NCBI GenBank assembly: GCA_039932995.1
Contig: JBDTOZ010000740.1
Location: forward strand, 1 to 52,923
Length of the DNA: 52,923 nucleotides
DNA from: Acidobacteriota bacterium
GTDB lineage: Bacteria; Acidobacteriota; Thermoanaerobaculia; Gp7-AA8
Direction: 5' to 3'
A program made the position numbers and the translations under genes. Numbering within the stretch: position 1 is the stretch's first letter; each line of letters opens with the position of its first letter. The notes below the pieces were generated by a model, which was given only the letters and a program-made list of their open reading frames with translations, was not told the DNA's origin and made no database searches. Below are positions 6,886 through 43,628 of this stretch, one piece after another.

Positions 6886-7974
6886 ATGCTGTACTACCTC
6901 CTCTTCGAGCTGCGCGACGTCTTCGTCGGCTTCAACGTCTTTCGCTACATCACCTTCCGGACGGCGTTTGCCGCTCTCACGGCCCTGCTCATCTCGCTGG
7001 TGCTGGGGCCGTGGCTGATCGAGCGGATGCGCCGCATCAAGCTCGGCCAGTACATTCGTGAGGAGGGGCCGAAGTCGCACCAGGCCAAGGCCGGCACGCC
7101 GACGATGGGGGGCATCCTCATCAATGTGGCCATCATCATCCCGACCATCCTCTGGGCCGACATCCGCAATCCGTACATCTGGATCGTGCTGTTCGTCACG
7201 GCGGCCTATGCCGCGATCGGGTTCGTCGACGACTACCGGAAGCTGGCCAAGAAACGCAATCTCGGTCTCACGCCGGCCGAGAAATTCGGCGCGCAGTTCA
7301 CGGTGGCCTTCCTGGCGGGAGCGGCCATCGCCTATCTGCCGATGCTGAAGAACAACTACTCCACGGCCATCACCTTTCCGTTTCTCAAGGACGTCACCCT
7401 CGATCTCGGACCGGTGTACATCCTCTTCATCGCGGTGATCCTGGTGGGAACGTCCAACGCCGTCAATCTCACCGATGGGCTGGACGGGCTGGCCATCGGC
7501 TCGGTGCTCGTGGCCGCTGTGACGTACACCGTCCTCACTTACGCGGCCGGGCACGCCCGCATCGCGGAGTACCTGCGCATCGCCTGGGTTCCGCAGACCG
7601 GAGAGCTGGCGGTGTTCTGCGGGGCCATGGTGGGGGCCTCGCTGGGATTCCTCTGGTTCAACGCGCACCCGGCGGAGATCTTCATGGGCGACGTTGGCTC
7701 GCTGGCTCTGGGCGGCGCGATCGGCTGTGTGGCCGTGACCATCAAGCAGGAGCTGCTACTCGTGCTGGTGGGCGGTCTGTTCGTCCTGGAGGCGCTGTCG
7801 GTCATCCTGCAGGTGGCGTCGTTCAAGATCACCGGCCGGCGCATCTTCAAGATGTCGCCGTTGCATCACCACTTCGAGCTTTCAGGTTGGAAGGAGACCA
7901 AGGTCGTCGTGCGGTTCTGGATCATCGCCATCATTTTCGCGATGGTCTCGCTGGCCACTTTGAAACTGAGATGA
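6886..7974 (+). CDS. mraY: phospho-N-acetylmuramoyl-pentapeptide transferase
   Basis: ATG 6886 (MLYYLLFELRDVF) preceded by GGGAGAG. NAVNLTDGLDGLA and PLHHHFE motifs. Polytopic membrane protein. Confidence 0.95.
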   Translation: MLYYLLFELRDVFVGFNVFRYITFRTAFAALTALLISLVLGPWLIERMRRIKLGQYIREEGPKSHQAKAGTPTMGGILINVAIIIPTILWADIRNPYIWIVLFVTAAYAAIGFVDDYRKLAKKRNLGLTPAEKFGAQFTVAFLAGAAIAYLPMLKNNYSTAITFPFLKDVTLDLGPVYILFIAVILVGTSNAVNLTDGLDGLAIGSVLVAAVTYTVLTYAAGHARIAEYLRIAWVPQTGELAVFCGAMVGASLGFLWFNAHPAEIFMGDVGSLALGGAIGCVAVTIKQELLLVLVGGLFVLEALSVILQVASFKITGRRIFKMSPLHHHFELSGWKETKVVVRFWIIAIIFAMVSLATLKLR

Positions 7975-8230
7975 GTCTTCGAGTCTTCGAGTCTTCGAGT
8001 CGTCGCGCCTGCAGTCGTCGGGTCGTTTTCATCGATGGAGTCTCACAGTCTCATAGGCTCACAGTCTCATAGACGCCGGAGCCAACGACACCTATGAGAT
8101 GAGACTCGACGACTCGACGACTCGACGACCCGAAGACTTGACGACTTGACGACCCGAAGGCCCGACGACCCGAAGACCCGAAGACTTGACGACTCGAAGA
8201 CTCGACGACCCGAAGACTCGAAGACTAGAC
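7973..8230. repeat. nested octamer-unit hairpin element, copy 1 (mraY-murD gap)
   Basis: Left outer arm (GAGTCTTC/GAGTCGTC)n and inner arms (TCTCACAG/TCTCATAG)n. The long right arm holds about 16 GACTCGAC/GACCCGAA/GACTTGAC octamers. The core is shared with 39151-39226. Confidence 0.9.
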
Positions 8231-8239
8231 AAAGACACA

Positions 8240-9553
8240 ATGAGCAAGACCCTGATCATAGGAGCAGCGAAATCCGGCGTGGCCGCGGCGAACTTTCTGG
8301 CGGCACGTAGGGAGTCCGTCATCCTGGCGGACAAAGCGATCCAGCCGTCGCTTCCTTACGCACTCGACGAGCGCGTGCAGCGGGCCTTCGGACGCGACGA
8401 CGCCGCTCTCCTCGATCAGGTCTCGCAGGTCGTGCTCAGTCCCGGTGTGCCGATGACACTGCCCTTGCTGCAGGAAGCGTCGTCGCGTGGGATCCCGGTT
8501 CTGGGCGAGATCGAGCTCGCTTACCGGCACCTCGAGGGCACGGTCATCGCCATCACGGGATCGAACGGCAAGTCCACCACCACGGCGCTCATCGGCGAGA
8601 TTCTGAAGGTGGCCGGCCGGCAGCCGATCGTGGCCGGCAACATCGGCGAGCCGCTGATCGCAGCGCTCGATCAGGAACGTGCACGGAACTACGTCGTCGA
8701 GCTCTCCTCCTTTCAACTGGAGGGAGTGGACACGTTTCGGGCGAACGTAGCCCTGTTGCTCAACGTGACGCCCGACCACATGGACCGTTATGCGACTTTC
8801 GACGCCTACGCCGCGGCGAAGGACCGGATCTTCCGCAACCAGCAGTCCGGAGACACGGCCATCGTGAACGCCTCCGAGCGGCGCGATTCCTCGCATGCTG
8901 GCGGAGTCCGGCCGTGGCGCTTTTCCGCCAGCCAGGTCGTCGAGGACGGCGCCTGGCTCGACGGCGACATGATGGTGATGTCCGTGGGGAGTGAAGAGCG
9001 CCGCATCCCGCGCACCTCCCTGCGGCTCCAGGGGACGGCCAATGTCGAGAATGCACTGGCGGCGTGGCTGGCCGCCCGGGCCGTGGGTGTCAGCGATGCG
9101 GACGTGCAGACTGCTTTCGGCACGTTTGCGGGACTGCCGCACCGGATGGTGCCGGTCCGCGACCGCAACGGCGTGCATTGGGTCAACGACTCCAAAGGAA
9201 CGAACGTCGATGCCACCTTGAAGTCGCTGGAGGGTTTCGCGGCGGGGAGCGTCCTCCTCATCCTGGGAGGCAAGGACAAGGCCGGCGAGTTCGAGCGGAT
9301 GCGCGAGCTGGTATCCGCGAAGGCCCCGATCGTTCTGACCATTGGATCGGCAGCGGACAGGATCGCCGCCGCATTGCAAGGTGCCACTGAGATCGTGGCC
9401 GCCGGCGATCTCGGCAAGGCCGTGCAGTGGGCCGGCCAGAACGCGAAGCCCGGGCAGACCGTGCTCCTTTCCCCCGCGTGCGCGAGCTTCGACCAATACC
9501 GCAATTTCGAGCATCGCGGCGAGCACTTCGAAGAACTGGTGAGGGCGTTATGA
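8240..9553 (+). CDS. murD: UDP-N-acetylmuramoylalanine--D-glutamate ligase
   Basis: ATG 8240 (MSKTLIIGAAKSGVAAANFL) and ITGSNGKSTTT. The in-frame upstream extension from 8186 lies inside the octamer repeat array. Confidence 0.9.
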   Translation: MSKTLIIGAAKSGVAAANFLAARRESVILADKAIQPSLPYALDERVQRAFGRDDAALLDQVSQVVLSPGVPMTLPLLQEASSRGIPVLGEIELAYRHLEGTVIAITGSNGKSTTTALIGEILKVAGRQPIVAGNIGEPLIAALDQERARNYVVELSSFQLEGVDTFRANVALLLNVTPDHMDRYATFDAYAAAKDRIFRNQQSGDTAIVNASERRDSSHAGGVRPWRFSASQVVEDGAWLDGDMMVMSVGSEERRIPRTSLRLQGTANVENALAAWLAARAVGVSDADVQTAFGTFAGLPHRMVPVRDRNGVHWVNDSKGTNVDATLKSLEGFAAGSVLLILGGKDKAGEFERMRELVSAKAPIVLTIGSAADRIAAALQGATEIVAAGDLGKAVQWAGQNAKPGQTVLLSPACASFDQYRNFEHRGEHFEELVRAL

Positions 9554-9555
9554 AC

Positions 9556-9712
9556 GGTTGCCGGTTGGCGGTTGGCAGTTGGCGGGAGCGACGTGGCAAC
9601 GCGCAGCTCCGTCCCGCAACGAGCGACGCGTCATCCCAGTCGTCATCCCGCCAGGCGTCATCCCGCCAACCGCCATCCCGCCAACCGTCAACCGCCAACC
9701 GCCAACCACCCA
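9556..9712. repeat. GGTTGGC/GCCAACC-class heptamer hairpin (murD-ftsW gap)
   Basis: 5' arm 9556-9585 (GGTTGCC GGTTGGC GGTTGGC AGTTGGC). 3' arm GCCAACC units at 9665-9707, interleaved with GTCATCCC units. It ends 9 nt before the ftsW ATG. Confidence 0.9.
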
Positions 9713-9716
9713 CCCC

Positions 9717-10811
9717 ATGAGCAGAAAACTGACCTACGACACCTGGCTCTTCTCCATCGCGACGCTGATCGTGGTGGTGGGCCTGGTCATGATCTACAGC
9801 GCCTCGGCGATGATCGCCACGCAGCGCTTCGGGCATGGGCCGTATTACTTTCTCATCCGCCAGGGCGCGTTTCTCGTGGCCGGCGCCCTGCTGACCGTGT
9901 TTCTCATGCATCTCAATCCGGCGGTGCTCCAGGACAAGCGGGTGCTGTATGGCGGTCTGGGAGTCGTGGCTCTGGGGTTGATCGTGGCGCTGTTTCAGTC
10001 GCCGATCAATGGAACGCACCGGTGGATCGCCCTGCCGTGGTTCCACCTCCAGCCCTCGGAGTTCGCCAAGCCGGCCATGATTCTCTTTCTGGCGTCGTTT
10101 CTCTCGCGACGAGAGGAGCGGATCAACGACGTGACCACCACGTTGCTGCCGATGGGATTCATGCTCTCCCTCTTCGCGGGCCTGATTCTTCTGGGCCGCG
10201 ACTTCGGGACGGCGACGACTCTGCTCCTGGTGGCCTGCGGGATGATCTTCGCGGCAGGGTTGTCGTGGCGCATCATCGCCGTGGTCGGTCTGGCCCTGGT
10301 TCCGACGGCGGGCTACCTCGTGCTCAGCGCGGCCTACCGGCGCGAGCGTCTGCTCACATTTCTCAATCCCGAGTCCGATCCGCTCGGGGCCGGCTTTCAG
10401 CCGATGCAGTCGCTGATCGCCCTGGGCACGGGCGGCTTCCAGGGTTTGGGCATCGGGAACGGACGACAGAAGCTCTTCTTTCTCCCGGAACCGCATACCG
10501 ATTTCATCTTCTCCATCATCGGCGAAGAGCTTGGGTTCCTGGGGGCTGTGCTGCTGCTGGCCGCGTTCGCTCTGCTCGTGTGGCGCGGGTACCGGATCGC
10601 ACGATTCAGTCAGAACCGTTTTGCGTTCTACGCCGCCCTCGGCTGCACGCTCATGATCGCCATCCAGGCATTGGTCAACGTCAGTGTCACGCTCTGTCTT
10701 TTGCCGACGAAGGGAATCCCTCTGCCGCTGGTGAGTTATGGCGGGTCGTCCCTTCTGGTCAGTCTCATCGCGGTGGGACTGCTTCTGAATTTTTCGCAGC
10801 AATCGGGATAG
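9717..10811 (+). CDS. ftsW: SEDS-family peptidoglycan glycosyltransferase FtsW
   Basis: ATG 9717 (MSRKLTYDTWLFSIATLIVV). SEDS motifs LQPSEFAKPA and LPTKGIPLPLVSYGGSS. The track ORF start at 9558 lies in the heptamer array. Confidence 0.9.
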   Translation: MSRKLTYDTWLFSIATLIVVVGLVMIYSASAMIATQRFGHGPYYFLIRQGAFLVAGALLTVFLMHLNPAVLQDKRVLYGGLGVVALGLIVALFQSPINGTHRWIALPWFHLQPSEFAKPAMILFLASFLSRREERINDVTTTLLPMGFMLSLFAGLILLGRDFGTATTLLLVACGMIFAAGLSWRIIAVVGLALVPTAGYLVLSAAYRRERLLTFLNPESDPLGAGFQPMQSLIALGTGGFQGLGIGNGRQKLFFLPEPHTDFIFSIIGEELGFLGAVLLLAAFALLVWRGYRIARFSQNRFAFYAALGCTLMIAIQALVNVSVTLCLLPTKGIPLPLVSYGGSSLLVSLIAVGLLLNFSQQSG

Positions 10812-10833
10812 GGGATGGGTGTGATGGGCGGAC

Positions 10834-10987
10834 AGTTGGCGAATGGCGGTTGGCGGTGGGCGGTGGACGCCGCGACCTGTTGCGTGCTCGCGCAACAGCA
10901 CCGGACATTCGCAGCCTGCCGCGTGCAATCCCGTCACGCGACGCGTGCCGACCTTCTCCGCCAACCGCCAACCGCCAACCGCCAAGC
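10834..10987. repeat. GGTTGGC/GCCAACC-class heptamer hairpin (ftsW-murG gap)
   Basis: 5' arm 10834-10868. Inner hairpin CTGTTGCG...CGCAACAG at 10877-10898. 3' arm (GCCAACC)x3 plus GCCAAGC at 10960-10987, abutting the murG GGAGG. Confidence 0.9.
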
Positions 10988-10996
10988 GGAGGCCCA

Positions 10997-12079
10997 ATGA
11001 CCACACTCCTGATTGCCGGAGGTGGTACCGGTGGCCACATTTACCCGGCCATCGCCATTGCCGGCGAATACGTGCGGCGTGATCCCGCCCGACGGGTCGT
11101 GTTCGTCGGCACGGAGAAGGGACTCGAAAAGCAGATCGTGCCGAAGGCGGGATTCCCGCTCGAGTTCATCGACGTCGGCGGCCTGAAAGGAAAAGGCGGC
11201 CTCGATCTGATCCGCAACATCCTGCGCGTCCCGAAGGGATTCGTGCAGGCCTGGCGTCTCATCGGAAAGCATCGCCCTGATGTGGTGCTGGGCGTGGGTG
11301 GCTACTCGTCCGGTCCCGTGCTCGTGGCCGCGAAGCTGCGGGGCGTGCCGACCATCATCCACGAGGCCAACGCGTTTCCCGGTCTCGCCAACCGTGTCGT
11401 GGCCCGCTTCGTGACCGCCGTGGCCGTGGCCTTCGACGAAGCCCTGCCGCGTCTGAAACGGAAAGACGGAGTGGTCACCGGCAACCCGATCCGTCAGGAG
11501 TTTTTCGAAGCGACCCGCGAGCAGCCGGCCGGCGATCTGAAACGGCTGCTGATTTTCGGCGGTTCCCAGGGCTCACGCATCCTCAACGACACCATGACCG
11601 GCGCGCTGCAGTTTCTCGCGCCGCTGCAGCGCACGTTGGAAATCGTTCATCAGACCGGACCGGCCGAATTGGAGAAGGTGCAGATCGCTTACCGCCAGTC
11701 CGCTTTTCCGGGCGCCCGCGTCGTTCCCTACCTCGATCCCATCGTGGACGAGATCGCGAACGCCGATCTGGTGGTCTGCCGGGCCGGAGCCATGACCATC
11801 GGCGAGCTTTGCGCGATCGGCCGCGGGGCCGTCCTCGTTCCTTTTGCCGCGGCCACGAACAACCATCAGGAGCTGAACGCGCGCGTCGTGGAGCGGGCTG
11901 GCGGCGCCGTGGTCATCACCGAATCCGGCCTTTCCCCGGAGCAGTTGGCCTCGGCCGTCACCGAAATTCTCAGCGATCCCGAACGGGCCGCGCGCATGGG
12001 CGGAGCGGCCAAAACCCTGGCCTTGCCGCTGGCTACGAAAAACATTGTCGATTTGATCGACAAAATCGAGAGAAATTAA
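10997..12079 (+). CDS. murG: UDP-N-acetylglucosamine--N-acetylmuramyl-(pentapeptide) pyrophosphoryl-undecaprenol GlcNAc transferase
   Basis: ATG 10997 preceded by GGAGG (10988-10992). G-loop GGTGGHIYPA. The 835-aa track ORF from 9572 is an artefactual upstream extension. Confidence 0.92.
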   Translation: MTTLLIAGGGTGGHIYPAIAIAGEYVRRDPARRVVFVGTEKGLEKQIVPKAGFPLEFIDVGGLKGKGGLDLIRNILRVPKGFVQAWRLIGKHRPDVVLGVGGYSSGPVLVAAKLRGVPTIIHEANAFPGLANRVVARFVTAVAVAFDEALPRLKRKDGVVTGNPIRQEFFEATREQPAGDLKRLLIFGGSQGSRILNDTMTGALQFLAPLQRTLEIVHQTGPAELEKVQIAYRQSAFPGARVVPYLDPIVDEIANADLVVCRAGAMTIGELCAIGRGAVLVPFAAATNNHQELNARVVERAGGAVVITESGLSPEQLASAVTEILSDPERAARMGGAAKTLALPLATKNIVDLIDKIERN

Positions 12080-33775: not shown

Positions 33776-33862
33776 GTTGCTGGTTGTTGGTTGTCGGTTC
33801 TCTGCGGAAGTCGGGTGTTGGGCCAAGGCCCCGCAAGCAACCAGCAACCAGTCACCAGTAAC
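33776..33862. repeat. CAACCAG-class heptamer hairpin (mreB-mreC gap)
   Basis: GTTGCTGGTTGTTGGTTGTCGGTTCTCTGCGG ... CCGCAAGCAACCAGCAACCAGTCACCAGTAAC, with a central GGCCAAGGCC palindrome. Confidence 0.85.
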
Positions 33863-33864
33863 CG

Positions 33865-38629: not shown

Positions 38630-39043
38630 TTGACCGTATCCGGAATCGCCCCGAAGTGGGATGAGCCTGCGATCCGCGTGCTGATGATGCCGCGGGATAC
38701 GAACGCGCACGGCACGATCTTCGGCGGCGTGATCCTTTCGTACATCGACCAGGCCGGCGCGATCGAAGCGCGCCGGCAGGGTCTGCACTTCATGGTCACC
38801 GTGTCGATGGACAAGGTCGTGTTTCACGAGCCTGTCTTCGTCGGCGACCTGGTGAGCTTCTGGACCGAGACCCTGCGTATCGGAACCACCTCGATCACGA
38901 CAAAAGTCGTGGTCGAGGCCATCCGTGCCGGAGATCCCAAGCAGCGGGTCACCGTGACCGAGGCGCACGTGGTCTACGTGAATATGGGGCTGGACGGGAA
39001 GAAGGCGACGATCCGGCGCGAGACGAACGCGTACGACGAGTAG
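38630..39043 (+). CDS. acyl-CoA thioesterase (hot-dog fold, YciA-like)
   Basis: [28 protein letters not shown] motif. The TTG start lies directly after the ppiD stop. Confidence 0.8.
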
Positions 39044-39358
39044 TCTTCTTCCTTCGTCTTCGTCTTCGTCTTGTCGTCTTGTCGCCAAGTCGCCAAGTCG
39101 CCAAGTCGTCGAGTCGCCAAGTCGTCGAGTCGTCGAGTCGTCCATTTTCGTCGATGGAGTCTCACAGGCTCATAGGCTCATAGGCTCACAGTCGCATAGA
39201 CGCCTGGGCCAACGACACCTATGAGACTGTGAGACTGTGAACCTATGAGACTTCGTGGCGCCTGAGGGGACACTCGACGACGCGAAGACTCGACGACTCG
39301 ACGACGCGAAGAAGACGGGAAGACGCGAAGAAGACCCGACGACTCGAAGACGAGAGGA
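39044..39358. repeat. nested octamer-unit hairpin element, copy 2 (thioesterase-rarA convergent gap)
   Basis: Left arm (GTCTTC/GTCGCCAA/GTCGTCGA)n and inner arms (CTCACAGG/CTCATAGG)n versus (CCTATGAG/ACTGTGAG)n. Right arm (ACTCGACG/ACGCGAAG)n. Core blocks are identical to copy 1. Confidence 0.9.
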
Positions 39359-40708
39359 CTACTTCTTCCGCGCAGACCGCGCAGACCGCACAGACCGCAT
39401 CCTGTCCAGCCTTTCGCGGATGGCGCTCTCCGCTCCGCTGTCTTTGGGCTCGTAGAATCGCCGTCCGGTCAGGGACTCGGGGAGGCAGTCCATGGCCGCG
39501 GTCTGTTCCTCGAAGTCGTGGGCGTACTGATAACCGCTGCCATAGCCGAGGTTCTTCATCAGTCGTGTCGGGGCATTCCGGATGTGCAGGGGGACGGGCG
39601 GGTTGTCACCGCGGCGAACTTCGCGGACCGCTTCGCCATAGCCGGCATAGGCTGCATTCGATTTCGGGGCCGCCGCCAGATACGTCACCAATTGCGCCAG
39701 GGCCACGCCGGCTTCGGGCATCCCGATGAAGTGCACGGCTTCCTTCACGGACACGGCCAGCATGAGCGCCCGCGGATCCGCATTGCCGATGTCTTCCGAC
39801 GCCGCCCGGACCATGCGCCTCGTGATGTAGAGAGGGTCTTCGCCCCCTTCCAGCATGCGCACCAGCCAGTAGACGGCGGCATCCGCGTCGCCGTTGCGAA
39901 TCGATTTGTGCAGCGCGGAAATGATGTTGTAGTGCTCGTCGCCGGCCTTGTCGTACATGAGCGAGCGTCGTTGCAGGACCTCCTGGACCTGTCCGACGTC
40001 CGCGGGCTCCTCGGATGGGGTGGCGGTTTCGACGACCAGTTGCAGGCTGGTCAGTGCCTGGCGGGCGTCGCCCGCCGAGGTGGCGGCGATGAAGTCGAGC
40101 GCCGCATCCGACAGCGTGACACCGAACGATTTGACGCTGGGGTGCTCGGCAGCGCGCCGGAGGATCCGGACCACCTGTTCGCGTTCCAGTGCCGGGATGA
40201 CCACCACCTTGGACCGGGACAGCAGTGCGGAATTCACTTCGAAGGAAGGGTTCTCCGTGGTCGCCCCGATGAGCGTGATGTCGCCCGATTCGACGTAGGG
40301 TAGAAACGCGTCCTGCTGGGCCTTGTTGAAGCGGTGGATCTCATCGATGAACACGATGGTCTTCGAGCCGCGGGTCTGCCGGGCCTTGCGCGCCTCTTCC
40401 ATCAGGGCCTTGATGTCCTTGATGGAGCTCGAGGTGGCCGAGAACGTGACGAAGCGTGCCCGCGTCGTGCGCGCGATGATCCGGGCCACGGTCGTTTTTC
40501 CGGAGCCCGGCGGCCCCCAGAAAATCATGGAGGGGATGCGGTCGTTCTCAATGGCGTTGCGCAGGAACTTCTTTTCGCCCAGAAGGTCTTCGAGGCCGAC
40601 CACTTCATCCAGCGAGGAAGGGCGAAGACGTTCCGCGAGGGGAGCGTCGGCGGATTGGACAGCCGGCGCAGGAACGTTGTCGTCGTCGCCGAAGAGAGAC
40701 CCGGTCAT
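39359..40708 (-). CDS. rarA: replication-associated recombination protein A (AAA+ ATPase)
   Basis: Walker A GPPGSGKTT, Walker B IFIDEIHRFNK, and a MgsA C-terminal region (HYNIISALHKSIRNGDADAAVYWL). Confidence 0.93.
   Translation of the reverse strand: MTGSLFGDDDNVPAPAVQSADAPLAERLRPSSLDEVVGLEDLLGEKKFLRNAIENDRIPSMIFWGPPGSGKTTVARIIARTTRARFVTFSATSSSIKDIKALMEEARKARQTRGSKTIVFIDEIHRFNKAQQDAFLPYVESGDITLIGATTENPSFEVNSALLSRSKVVVIPALEREQVVRILRRAAEHPSVKSFGVTLSDAALDFIAATSAGDARQALTSLQLVVETATPSEEPADVGQVQEVLQRRSLMYDKAGDEHYNIISALHKSIRNGDADAAVYWLVRMLEGGEDPLYITRRMVRAASEDIGNADPRALMLAVSVKEAVHFIGMPEAGVALAQLVTYLAAAPKSNAAYAGYGEAVREVRRGDNPPVPLHIRNAPTRLMKNLGYGSGYQYAHDFEEQTAAMDCLPESLTGRRFYEPKDSGAESAIRERLDRMRSVRSARSARKK
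39370..39396. repeat. 3 x 9-nt tandem repeat (GCGCAGACC GCGCAGACC GCACAGACC) inside the 3' end of rarA
   Basis: Encodes the ...RSVRSARSARKK tail on the minus strand. It lies immediately adjacent to the intergenic repeat element. Confidence 0.85.
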
Positions 40709-43492: not shown

Positions 43493-43628
43493 GTTGCTGG
43501 TTACTGGTTACTGGTTACTGGTTGCTGGTTGCTGGTTACTGGTTGTCTGCGGTTTCTGGCCTTGGCAGTTTCCGGAGTGCGGTCCAGGCGACGAACCGCA
43601 GACAACCAGCAACCAGCAACCAGTTAAC
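43493..43628. repeat. CAACCAG-class heptamer hairpin with unequal arms (8 versus 4 units)
   Basis: Left arm (GTTGCTG/GTTACTG)x7 + GTTGTCT + GCGG over 43493-43552. Right arm CCGCAGACAACCAGCAACCAGCAACCAGTTAAC over 43596-43628. Confidence 0.9.

Follow-up and report, generated by a model that had tools for sequence, protein, structure and literature searches.

A dispersed, gene-less foldback repeat at the mraY-murD junction of an Acidobacteriota genome, probably derived from a resident four-helix-bundle protein cassette

The window analysed here is the whole of contig JBDTOZ010000740.1 (52,923 nt; C740 in our numbering), one of the 953 contigs of the 6.78-Mb assembly GCA_039932995.1 of a soil Acidobacteriota bacterium (64.8% G+C; coded G000 among the compared genomes). 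Genes were called with a simple codon-usage caller written for this analysis. Two intergenic gaps of the window, one between mraY and murD of the dcw operon and one between two convergent genes, contain repeats which an earlier reading made from the letters only (the sequence-only reading) had described as two copies of one nested octamer hairpin element. The gap lengths given there, 265 and 315 nt, are correct according to the stop and start positions of the flanking genes. The first gap extends from the mraY stop codon (TGA, 7972-7974) to the murD start at 8240 and is nearly all repeat, the element (copy 1) being 258 nt in size. The second gap (39044-39358) lies between a forward-strand gene with its stop at 39043 and a convergent reverse-strand gene with its stop at 39359-39361. 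Here the element (copy 2) measures 315 nt.

The order of parts was the same in both gaps and the unit counts differed. In the outer arms, GAGTCGTC/GAGTCTTC units (5') face GACGACTC/GAAGACTC units (3'); in the inner arms, CTCAYAG units (5') face CTRTGAG units (3'), and the loop between them is the 19-nt ACGCCNGNGCCAACGACAC. Three core blocks, as had been reported, are letter-identical between the copies (8032-8048 and 39151-39167, 8068-8077 and 39195-39204, 8081-8099 and 39208-39226). The parts are as follows.

7971-7975, + strand: ATGAG with the mraY stop (TGA, 7972-7974), left copy of a duplicated junction; the insert has the same ATGAG at its other end.
7973-8026, + strand: outer 5' arm of copy 1, three GAGTCTTC units, GAGTCGTC and degenerate units (AGTCGTCG, GGTCG); period 8, 4.1 copies, 96% match; repeat family D2.
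8027-8038, + strand: hinge of copy 1, TTTTCATCGATGG, unpaired and with no partner on the 3' side; specific to the sub-family and common to the window copies, C426, C814a and C814b (see below).
8039-8072, + strand: inner 5' arm of copy 1, four octamers AGTCTCAC AGTCTCAT AGGCTCAC AGTCTCAT (AG); repeat family D3.
8073-8091, + strand: 19-nt loop of copy 1, ACGCCGGAGCCAACGACAC; its pattern occurs at five places in the genome, and 13 of 19 positions match the interior end of the cassette described below.
8092-8104, + strand: truncated inner 3' arm of copy 1, CTATGAGA TGAGA, about 1.5 units against four on the 5' side.
8103-8230, + strand: outer 3' arm of copy 1, 16 octamers of the GACGACTC / GAAGACTC / GACGACCC / GACGACTT type; period 8, 16.0 copies; repeat family D1.
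8240-8244, + strand: ATGAG with the murD start codon, right copy of the duplicated junction.
39044-39142, + strand: outer 5' arm of copy 2, GTCTTC-type units (39043-39072) followed by 8.8 octamers GTCGTCGA/GTCGCCAA (39073-39142).
39143-39157, + strand: hinge of copy 2, CATTTTCGTCGATGG.
39158-39199, + strand: inner 5' arm of copy 2, five octamers AGTCTCAC AGGCTCAT AGGCTCAT AGGCTCAC AGTCGCAT AG; the stretch 39161-39199 has period 8 and 4.9 copies.
39200-39218, + strand: 19-nt loop of copy 2, ACGCCTGGGCCAACGACAC; 12 of 19 positions match the cassette interior end (p = 0.0095).
39219-39252, + strand: inner 3' arm of copy 2, four octamers CTATGAGA CTGTGAGA CTGTGAAC CTATGAGA CT (array 39222-39252).
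39272-39358, + strand: outer 3' arm of copy 2, ACTCGACG / GAAGACGC-type units, running up to the stop codon of the convergent gene.

The nested anatomy proposed earlier was therefore present as far as outer octamers, inner octamers and loop are concerned, but copy 1 is lopsided and forms no clean nested stem. Its left side has about 6 outer and 4 inner units, its right side 16 outer and about 1.5 inner units. Directly beside copy 2, at 39368-39398, a 9-nt tandem repeat (CCGCGCAGA, 3.4 copies) was found, which is coding and falls within the 3' end of the convergent gene.

Folded as RNA, the copy 1 gap reached -119.3 kcal/mol (z = -6.74) and the copy 2 gap -161.9 kcal/mol (z = -8.30), and in neither case was a dinucleotide shuffle as good. 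In the copy 2 fold GUAGUC (39040-39045) pairs with GACUAC (39356-39361), and the outermost pairs thus include both stop codons. The CACAG/CATAG unit variants had been expected to pair through G-U wobbles. This applies where a U of the 5' arm faces a G of the 3' arm, but a C facing an A does not pair, and the other common outer-arm variant (G/T against C/A) is a transversion and cannot wobble. An intrinsic terminator was considered and rejected: the large stem is not followed by a T-run, and a scan for terminators yielded no more than two small stems of 5 bp, of which one is within the mraY coding sequence.

A core made up of the hinge, the 19-nt loop and four inner units whose variants follow the same order was found in six copies at four loci with unrelated flanks. 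These were the two window copies, a copy on contig C426 and two to three on contig C814, where the core lies at two places, one of them a duplicated composite. The core copies are 85-100% identical over 70-85 nt and differ in arm counts and flanks. A strict loop pattern occurred at 5 places in this genome and at none in 34 other species of the genus; it was preferred to a looser loop 12-mer with one mismatch, which matched mostly chance coding DNA. Distant blastn yielded no plasmid-borne relative. Two loci have the asymmetric core in sense orientation to their flanking genes, and one or two have it in antisense orientation. The sequence-only reading knew the two window copies and likened them to a miniature inverted-repeat transposable element (MITE); the finding of the core at C426 and C814 supports that likeness. 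Judged by these comparisons, the core is a young, dispersed sub-family limited to this species.

On C814 the stretch 7545-8065 is a three-layer composite, in which heptamer arms (CGGTTGG/CCAACCG) surround outer octamers that in turn surround two successive cores. One core of the C814 composite has a shortened loop, ACGCGGGAACGACACC.

To place the two gaps within the genome, arrays were detected by Tandem Repeats Finder (TRF), labelled by unit family and read as ordered 'sentences', with A denoting the outer-arm type and B the inner-arm type. TRF found 1313 arrays of period 7 and 1010 of period 8, far above the neighbouring periods, and a few unit families dominate: AACCAGC (390 arrays), AACCGCC (366), the A type ACGACTCG/AAGACTCG (about 290), the B type ACAGTCTC with its variants (about 160) and ACACAGAG/ACAGAGGC (125). 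The standard compound is 'A< B> B< A>', with 19 complete and many partial or contig-cut forms among 106 A/B loci in total. Complete inner-only hairpins ('B> B<') numbered 4, and 13 loci carried B arrays only. The arms are tandem arrays of 3-20 octamers and differ between left and right by a mean of 4 units (rho 0.39). Their unit numbers change freely, consistent with slippage. The layer order was never reversed, and heptamer arms, where present, were always outermost. Handedness was likewise fixed, CTCAYAG being the 5' arm in 49 forward-loop-reverse cases against 4 in the reverse-forward order, the latter representing neighbouring elements; a reversed control pattern gave no match in 41 genomes. 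The hinge of the core is absent from other A/B elements, for example those at C154 and C932.

All 106 A/B loci are intergenic, and none lies more than 50% inside a gene. Away from contig ends they occupied 20 tandem, 18 convergent and 10 divergent junctions, while the background junctions numbered 2951, 583 and 648, respectively. The hairpins nearly fill these junctions, with a median of 12-30 nt left between array and facing stop. As many as 391 of the 1906 contig ends (about 20%) lie within 150 nt of an array of the 7- or 8-nt families, and these arrays are among the main reasons why this assembly is fragmented. Because the arrays themselves break the assembly, the A/B copy numbers given here are minimum values, and in some cases a single element is split over two loci. 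Further heptamer-armed hairpins were seen in the window at 990-1156, 10835-10985, 33776-33863 and 43493-43623 (GTTGCTG/CAACCAG, GTTGGCG/CCGCCAA, GTTACTG/CAACCAG). Their G/T-rich arm is always 5', and the heptamer families occupy about 650 loci genome-wide.

Within the genus the two unit families were distributed unevenly. Inner-type hairpins gave 54 matches in G000, 66 in G006, 50 in G022 and 27 in G010, were rare in four further species and were absent from 17 same-genus and 16 other-genus genomes, so that 8 of 25 same-genus genomes carry them. Outer-type di-units, counted on both strands, were present in 12 of 35 genomes, with the counts G020 457, G000 430, G043 201, G010 168, G045 123 and G013 96, and absent from the remaining 23. 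The compound A/B form is typical of G000 and occurs also in G010; G006 and G022 have inner hairpins alone, without outer arms. Since the families are patchy and the inner hairpins can stand alone, the two families wax and wane independently.

The murD locus was compared across 30 species of the genus (MurD identity 73-79%), of which 16 loci were readable in orientation upstream of murD. In 11 of the 16 (G013, G008, G005, G023, G004, G009, G006, G016, G021, G007 and G024) mraY and murD overlap by ATGA or abut; the gap-free relatives read GAGATGAGC, with the mraY TGA overlapping the murD ATG. The other five junctions are filled by hairpins, no two of which are built from the same unit. In this genome these are the A/B octamers. 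The remaining four are listed here.

L013, about 1235-1500: filled mraY/murD junction of G045, AGTCGCAA-type octamers.
L014, about 1235-1500: filled mraY/murD junction of G022, GTTGCTC units.
L017, about 1235-1500: filled mraY/murD junction of G003, GCAGATC units.
L021, about 1235-1500: filled mraY/murD junction of G020, ACCAGCA units.

Every filled mraY/murD insert has ATGA at both ends, extended to ATGAG in this genome and in G045. Compared with the relatives, the left ATGAG at the mraY stop is the apparent fossil of an ancestral ATGA stop/start overlap, and the empty site in this species would read GAGATGAGCAAG. The adjacent murD/ftsW junction (9551-9721) contains a heptamer hairpin (CGGTTGG x4 ... 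CCGCCAA x6) between TTATGA, where murD stops, and ATGAGC, where ftsW starts; TTA is a rare codon, and its place ahead of the murD stop suggests that an ATGA overlap once existed here as well. At the junction of copy 2 the two stops overlap (CTAG) in G004 and are 9 nt apart in G016, and other palindromic inserts are present in G019, G009 and G005. The sequence comparison thus gives good evidence of insertion at both window sites, where relatives have compact junctions, and of repeated colonisation of the same junctions.

For a target-site duplication, which the sequence-only reading had advised looking for, the signs are only suggestive. Six independent inserts at sites of earlier ATGA overlaps have ATGA(G) on either side, but no genome-wide signal accompanies this, and inserts that destroyed the stop or the start would have been removed by selection. 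Copy 2 is flanked by an 8-nt direct repeat, CTTCTTCC (39045-39052 and 39362-39369), which is indistinguishable from arm sequence. Its right copy forms the last codons of the convergent gene and may be a target duplication or a chance likeness to the (GAAGAC)n arm.

The same inner arms also enclose a gene. The PF05635 (23S_rRNA_IVP) profile identified three genes in this genome. One of them, at C699:10821-11078, scored 90 bits with PF05635 and 95.8 bits with TIGR02436 ('four helix bundle protein'); its product has 119 aa, and among solved structures 2GSC from Xanthomonas campestris comes nearest. The cassette around it (10686-11209; 1366-1889 of locus L044) has a CTCAYAG arm at 10686-10713 and a CTRTGAG arm at 11176-11209, and lies between what we take, from their C-terminal sequences, to be an ABC-2-type permease gene and an hslU-like gene. 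A second PF05635 gene, in the stretch C724:3522-4072, is placed between GGTTGGC and CCGCCAA heptamer arrays, and the contig ends inside the right arm.

An orthologous cassette was present beside the same GGTACGTTTTGTAG gene end in three other species, with inner-type arms in G006, degenerate inner-type arms in G003 and outer-type arms (GAGTCGTC/GACGACTC) in G013. Therefore one old cassette, passed on by vertical inheritance, has both unit families as its shells, and the arms of a resident cassette are replaced over time.

The core of the window copies resembles the inner end of the C699 cassette. The core loop with its 3' arm (GCCGGAGCCAACGACAC followed by CTATGAGACTTTGAGACTATGAGACTGCG) and the last interior bases of the cassette with its 3' arm (GCCGGTGCGAAGGAACC followed by CTATGAGACTGTGAGACTGTGAGACTGCG) agree at 39 of 46 positions (with ACTGCG). 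For the loop itself, 13 of 19 positions agree with the inner end of the cassette, and 1 of 2000 loop shuffles was as good (p = 0.0005); the other two loop variants gave p = 0.006-0.01. The inner 5' arm of copy 1 matches the C699 arm at 33 of 34 positions, to which no weight is given because that unit order is common among inner arms. Since the same CTCAYAG arms enclose the C699 gene and the loop matches the inner end of the cassette, the window copies are probably gene-deleted derivatives of a C699-type cassette. In G010, two gene-less inner-type hairpins (C82:257-305 and C284:3027-3083) have the 19-nt loop AGGCCGGTGCATGGTTCCC, which by eye shares GCCGGTGC with the C699 cassette end.

The element is thus dispersed, inserted relative to compact ancestral junctions and related to the cassette. 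Taking these results together, we consider it likely that both gaps hold a selfish, non-autonomous, MITE-like gene-less foldback repeat of the intervening sequence (IVS) type, the resident PF05635/TIGR02436 cassette being its most likely source. The comparison with MITEs made by the sequence-only reading is borne out by the dispersed core, the intergenic family of about 100 loci, the empty orthologous sites and the gene-bearing relative with the same arms in the same genome. An internal deletion of about 445 nt would have removed the four-helix-bundle gene, leaving the two arms with about 17-19 nt of the inner end between them. This gene-less remnant would then have been copied to new sites, with the cassette protein or another host factor acting in trans, and insertion may duplicate 4-5 bp of target (ATGA or ATGAG). 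In the mraY-murD transcript, by analogy with the IVS of 23S ribosomal RNA (rRNA), the long stem would be cut by RNase III, so that the insert would punctuate the operon instead of terminating it; such cutting would leave the flanking cistrons functional.

Among known systems the 23S rRNA IVS come closest to this picture. Their stems are cut by RNase III, their distribution is sporadic and mobility has been suspected, and according to an old suggestion an open reading frame (ORF) enclosed by the IVS supplies the mobilising agent (PMC4990558). Like the ORF-bearing IVS of Coxiella burnetii (helix 45, with the S23p ORF) and of Leptospira (PMC4990558), the C699 cassette is a long inverted-repeat stem around a PF05635 gene. 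The window copies share with the IVS a long terminal inverted-repeat stem and insertion into a transcribed unit that tolerates it, whereas excision by RNase III, a feature of the 23S IVS, is assumed for them by analogy. They differ in being gene-less (a 19-nt loop), the PF05635 ORF being found only in the presumed parent C699 and in the heptamer-armed C724, and in lying between protein-coding genes and not in rRNA (helix 9, 25 or 45). Further differences are the two-layer tandem-octamer stems, with up to about 130 nt per arm, and the excess of gene-less over gene-bearing elements of about 100 to 1.

With MITEs the elements have in common that they are short, non-coding, bounded by inverted repeats and present in many dispersed copies (six cores at four loci; 106 A/B loci), that internal deletion of a longer coding element probably gave rise to them, and that they may duplicate a short target stretch. 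In contrast to MITEs, the longer relative encodes a four-helix-bundle protein without a transposase domain, and the terminal repeats are variable tandem arrays where MITEs have fixed ends.

Other repeats of similar build were compared. The Xanthomonas GGGAATC heptamer arrays include 70-75 convergent pairs able to form stem-loops, and cyanobacteria carry short tandemly repeated repetitive (STRR) sequences and GGGGAYT repeats (PMC4692102). As here, these are intergenic tandem units of 7-9 nt in inverted pairs near gene ends, and theirs differ in length between related strains (PMC4692102). Unlike our 8-nt units, which are not G-rich, theirs are G-rich and have been studied as quadruplex formers, and the descriptions lack the nested second unit family, the shared unique loop and the gene-bearing parent found here.

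The bacterial interspersed mosaic elements (BIMEs) of E. coli and the BOX elements of Streptococcus pneumoniae are modular intergenic repeats that can sit in operons, form stable RNA stem-loops and affect mRNA stability. The present elements are similar in having few module types in variable number, in being intergenic and in their ability to lie in operons. They have no sequence relation to BIME or BOX, whose modules are 20-60 bp and not 8-nt units and show no strictly nested inverted layers. Our literature searches turned up no description of two nested unit families or of a unique loop common to dispersed copies, nor of a matched gene-bearing parent or serial colonisation of one ATGA overlap.

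Several observations weigh against descent from the cassette and against transposition-like spread. The specific evidence for cassette descent is the 17-19-nt loop match only. When C699 was tried as the parent of the commonest A/B loop families, for example TGCACGTGCCACGAGCC, no significant likeness to the C699 interior was obtained (p > 0.05). Because these loops do not resemble its interior, C699 cannot be the parent of all A/B elements, and the main A/B loop families must go back to other parents or to much older deletions. The ATGA duplication could be forced by selection, both essential genes needing their stop and start. Genome-wide, neither fossil ATGA at upstream stops (22 of 279 hairpin junctions against 150 of 1224) nor fossil ATGA and GTGA combined (88 of 279 against 370 of 1224) was enriched at hairpin junctions. 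No transposase or other enzyme could be linked to the elements, the three Y1_Tnp genes of the genome having no A or B arrays beside them. Finally, the comparison is at the species level: the nearest genomes have about 78% MurD identity, and a scan of metagenomes for MurD returned nothing closer than 79%.

The strongest of the other explanations supposes a selected operon-punctuation element, in which an RNase III site, a barrier to 3' exonucleases or a stop-to-start fold sets the expression of the cistrons (dcw, mre, nuo). It is compatible with a selfish origin and claims that function now maintains the hairpins. The almost complete filling of the junctions, the location inside essential operons without disrupting them and the repeated colonisation of the same junctions in different species would fit it well, and RNase III, the enzyme that cuts 23S IVS stems (PMC4990558), would find stems of sufficient length here. 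Yet 11 of the 16 relatives manage without any mraY/murD spacer, and the unit families at the same site differ between species, leaving no conserved sequence. The arms are moreover lopsided, copy 1 having lost most of its inner 3' arm, and both families are patchy in the genus (inner type in 8 of 25, outer type in 12 of 35 genomes). We regard selected punctuation as rather unlikely on balance.

Growth in place would explain each hairpin by duplication, template switching and slippage, with the likeness of the units due to mutational bias or gene conversion. The freely varying unit numbers between copies and arms agree with this, as does the first unit of copy 1, which runs seamlessly out of the mraY stop (GAT GAG TCTTC); the lack of a mobilising enzyme and of a genome-wide excess of fossil ATGA can be added. 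What makes it improbable is the unique, non-repetitive 19-nt loop together with the hinge of about 13 nt, both of which recur at 85-100% identity at loci with unrelated flanks and were therefore not independently created by slippage. A further point against it is that a few unit families prevail throughout the genome and keep a fixed handedness.

A structured RNA gene had been the second option of the sequence-only reading. The element would then encode a small RNA, or act as a cis-regulatory one, in which helper stems of variable length surround a conserved core. A core conserved between copies while the arms vary, and the very stable predicted fold, are what such an RNA would show. We nevertheless regard it as very improbable. 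Rfam gave no match at the gathering threshold in the whole window; at E <= 1 copy 1 still had no match, and copy 2 matched nothing but eukaryotic microRNA-precursor models (generic hairpins), far below threshold. The core was absent from the 34 other species, stands in both orientations to the flanking genes and has unequal arms, and a scan found no promoter-like site. A small peptide gene was also rejected: a 20-codon frame opening at the ATG of the copy 1 hinge (ATGGAGTCT...TGA) was the only ORF and is not shared, since the extra octamer of copy 2 shifts the frame to an early TAG.

Movement of repetitive extragenic palindromic (REP) or REPIN-type elements by a REP-associated tyrosine transposase (RAYT, Y1 type) is hardly credible, because none of the three PF01797 Y1_Tnp genes that would speak for it is flanked by A or B arrays and because transposition of the IS200/IS605 type is not known to make a target duplication. 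The palindromes are intergenic and the outer unit contains CGTC, the tag of one REP super-family, but the elements here are 150-500 bp with tandem-unit arms, and REPs are single stems of 20-40 bp (5-13 bp stem, 2-20-nt loop) with an unpaired GTAG or CGTC tag and a RAYT gene flanked by the repeats (PMC3733652).

Gene-less repeats shed by a PF05635/TIGR02436 cassette thus remain the reading that we prefer. We extend it only tentatively, as something possible rather than probable, to the proposal that PF05635 cassettes are the autonomous form of an unrecognised class of bacterial foldback elements, which would shed their gene, have their shells copied into stop/start junctions with a 4-5-bp duplication and be removed from mRNA by RNase III. 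If this is true, C699 and the six gene-less cores would be the first matched pair of parent and derivative. Such a pair within one genome would tie the gene-less repeat-armed hairpins of Xanthomonas and cyanobacteria to the 23S IVS cassettes, and the very common PF05635/TIGR02436 family would thereby get a testable job. In practical terms, the arrays can mislead gene callers, as illustrated by the ftsW start called at 9558, within the array 9558-9712. Essential coupled pairs (mraY/murD, murD/ftsW) have repeatedly accepted hairpins of 150-300 nt exactly at the ATGA overlap in different species, and these hairpins constitute a natural experiment on translational coupling and on the processing of operon mRNA.

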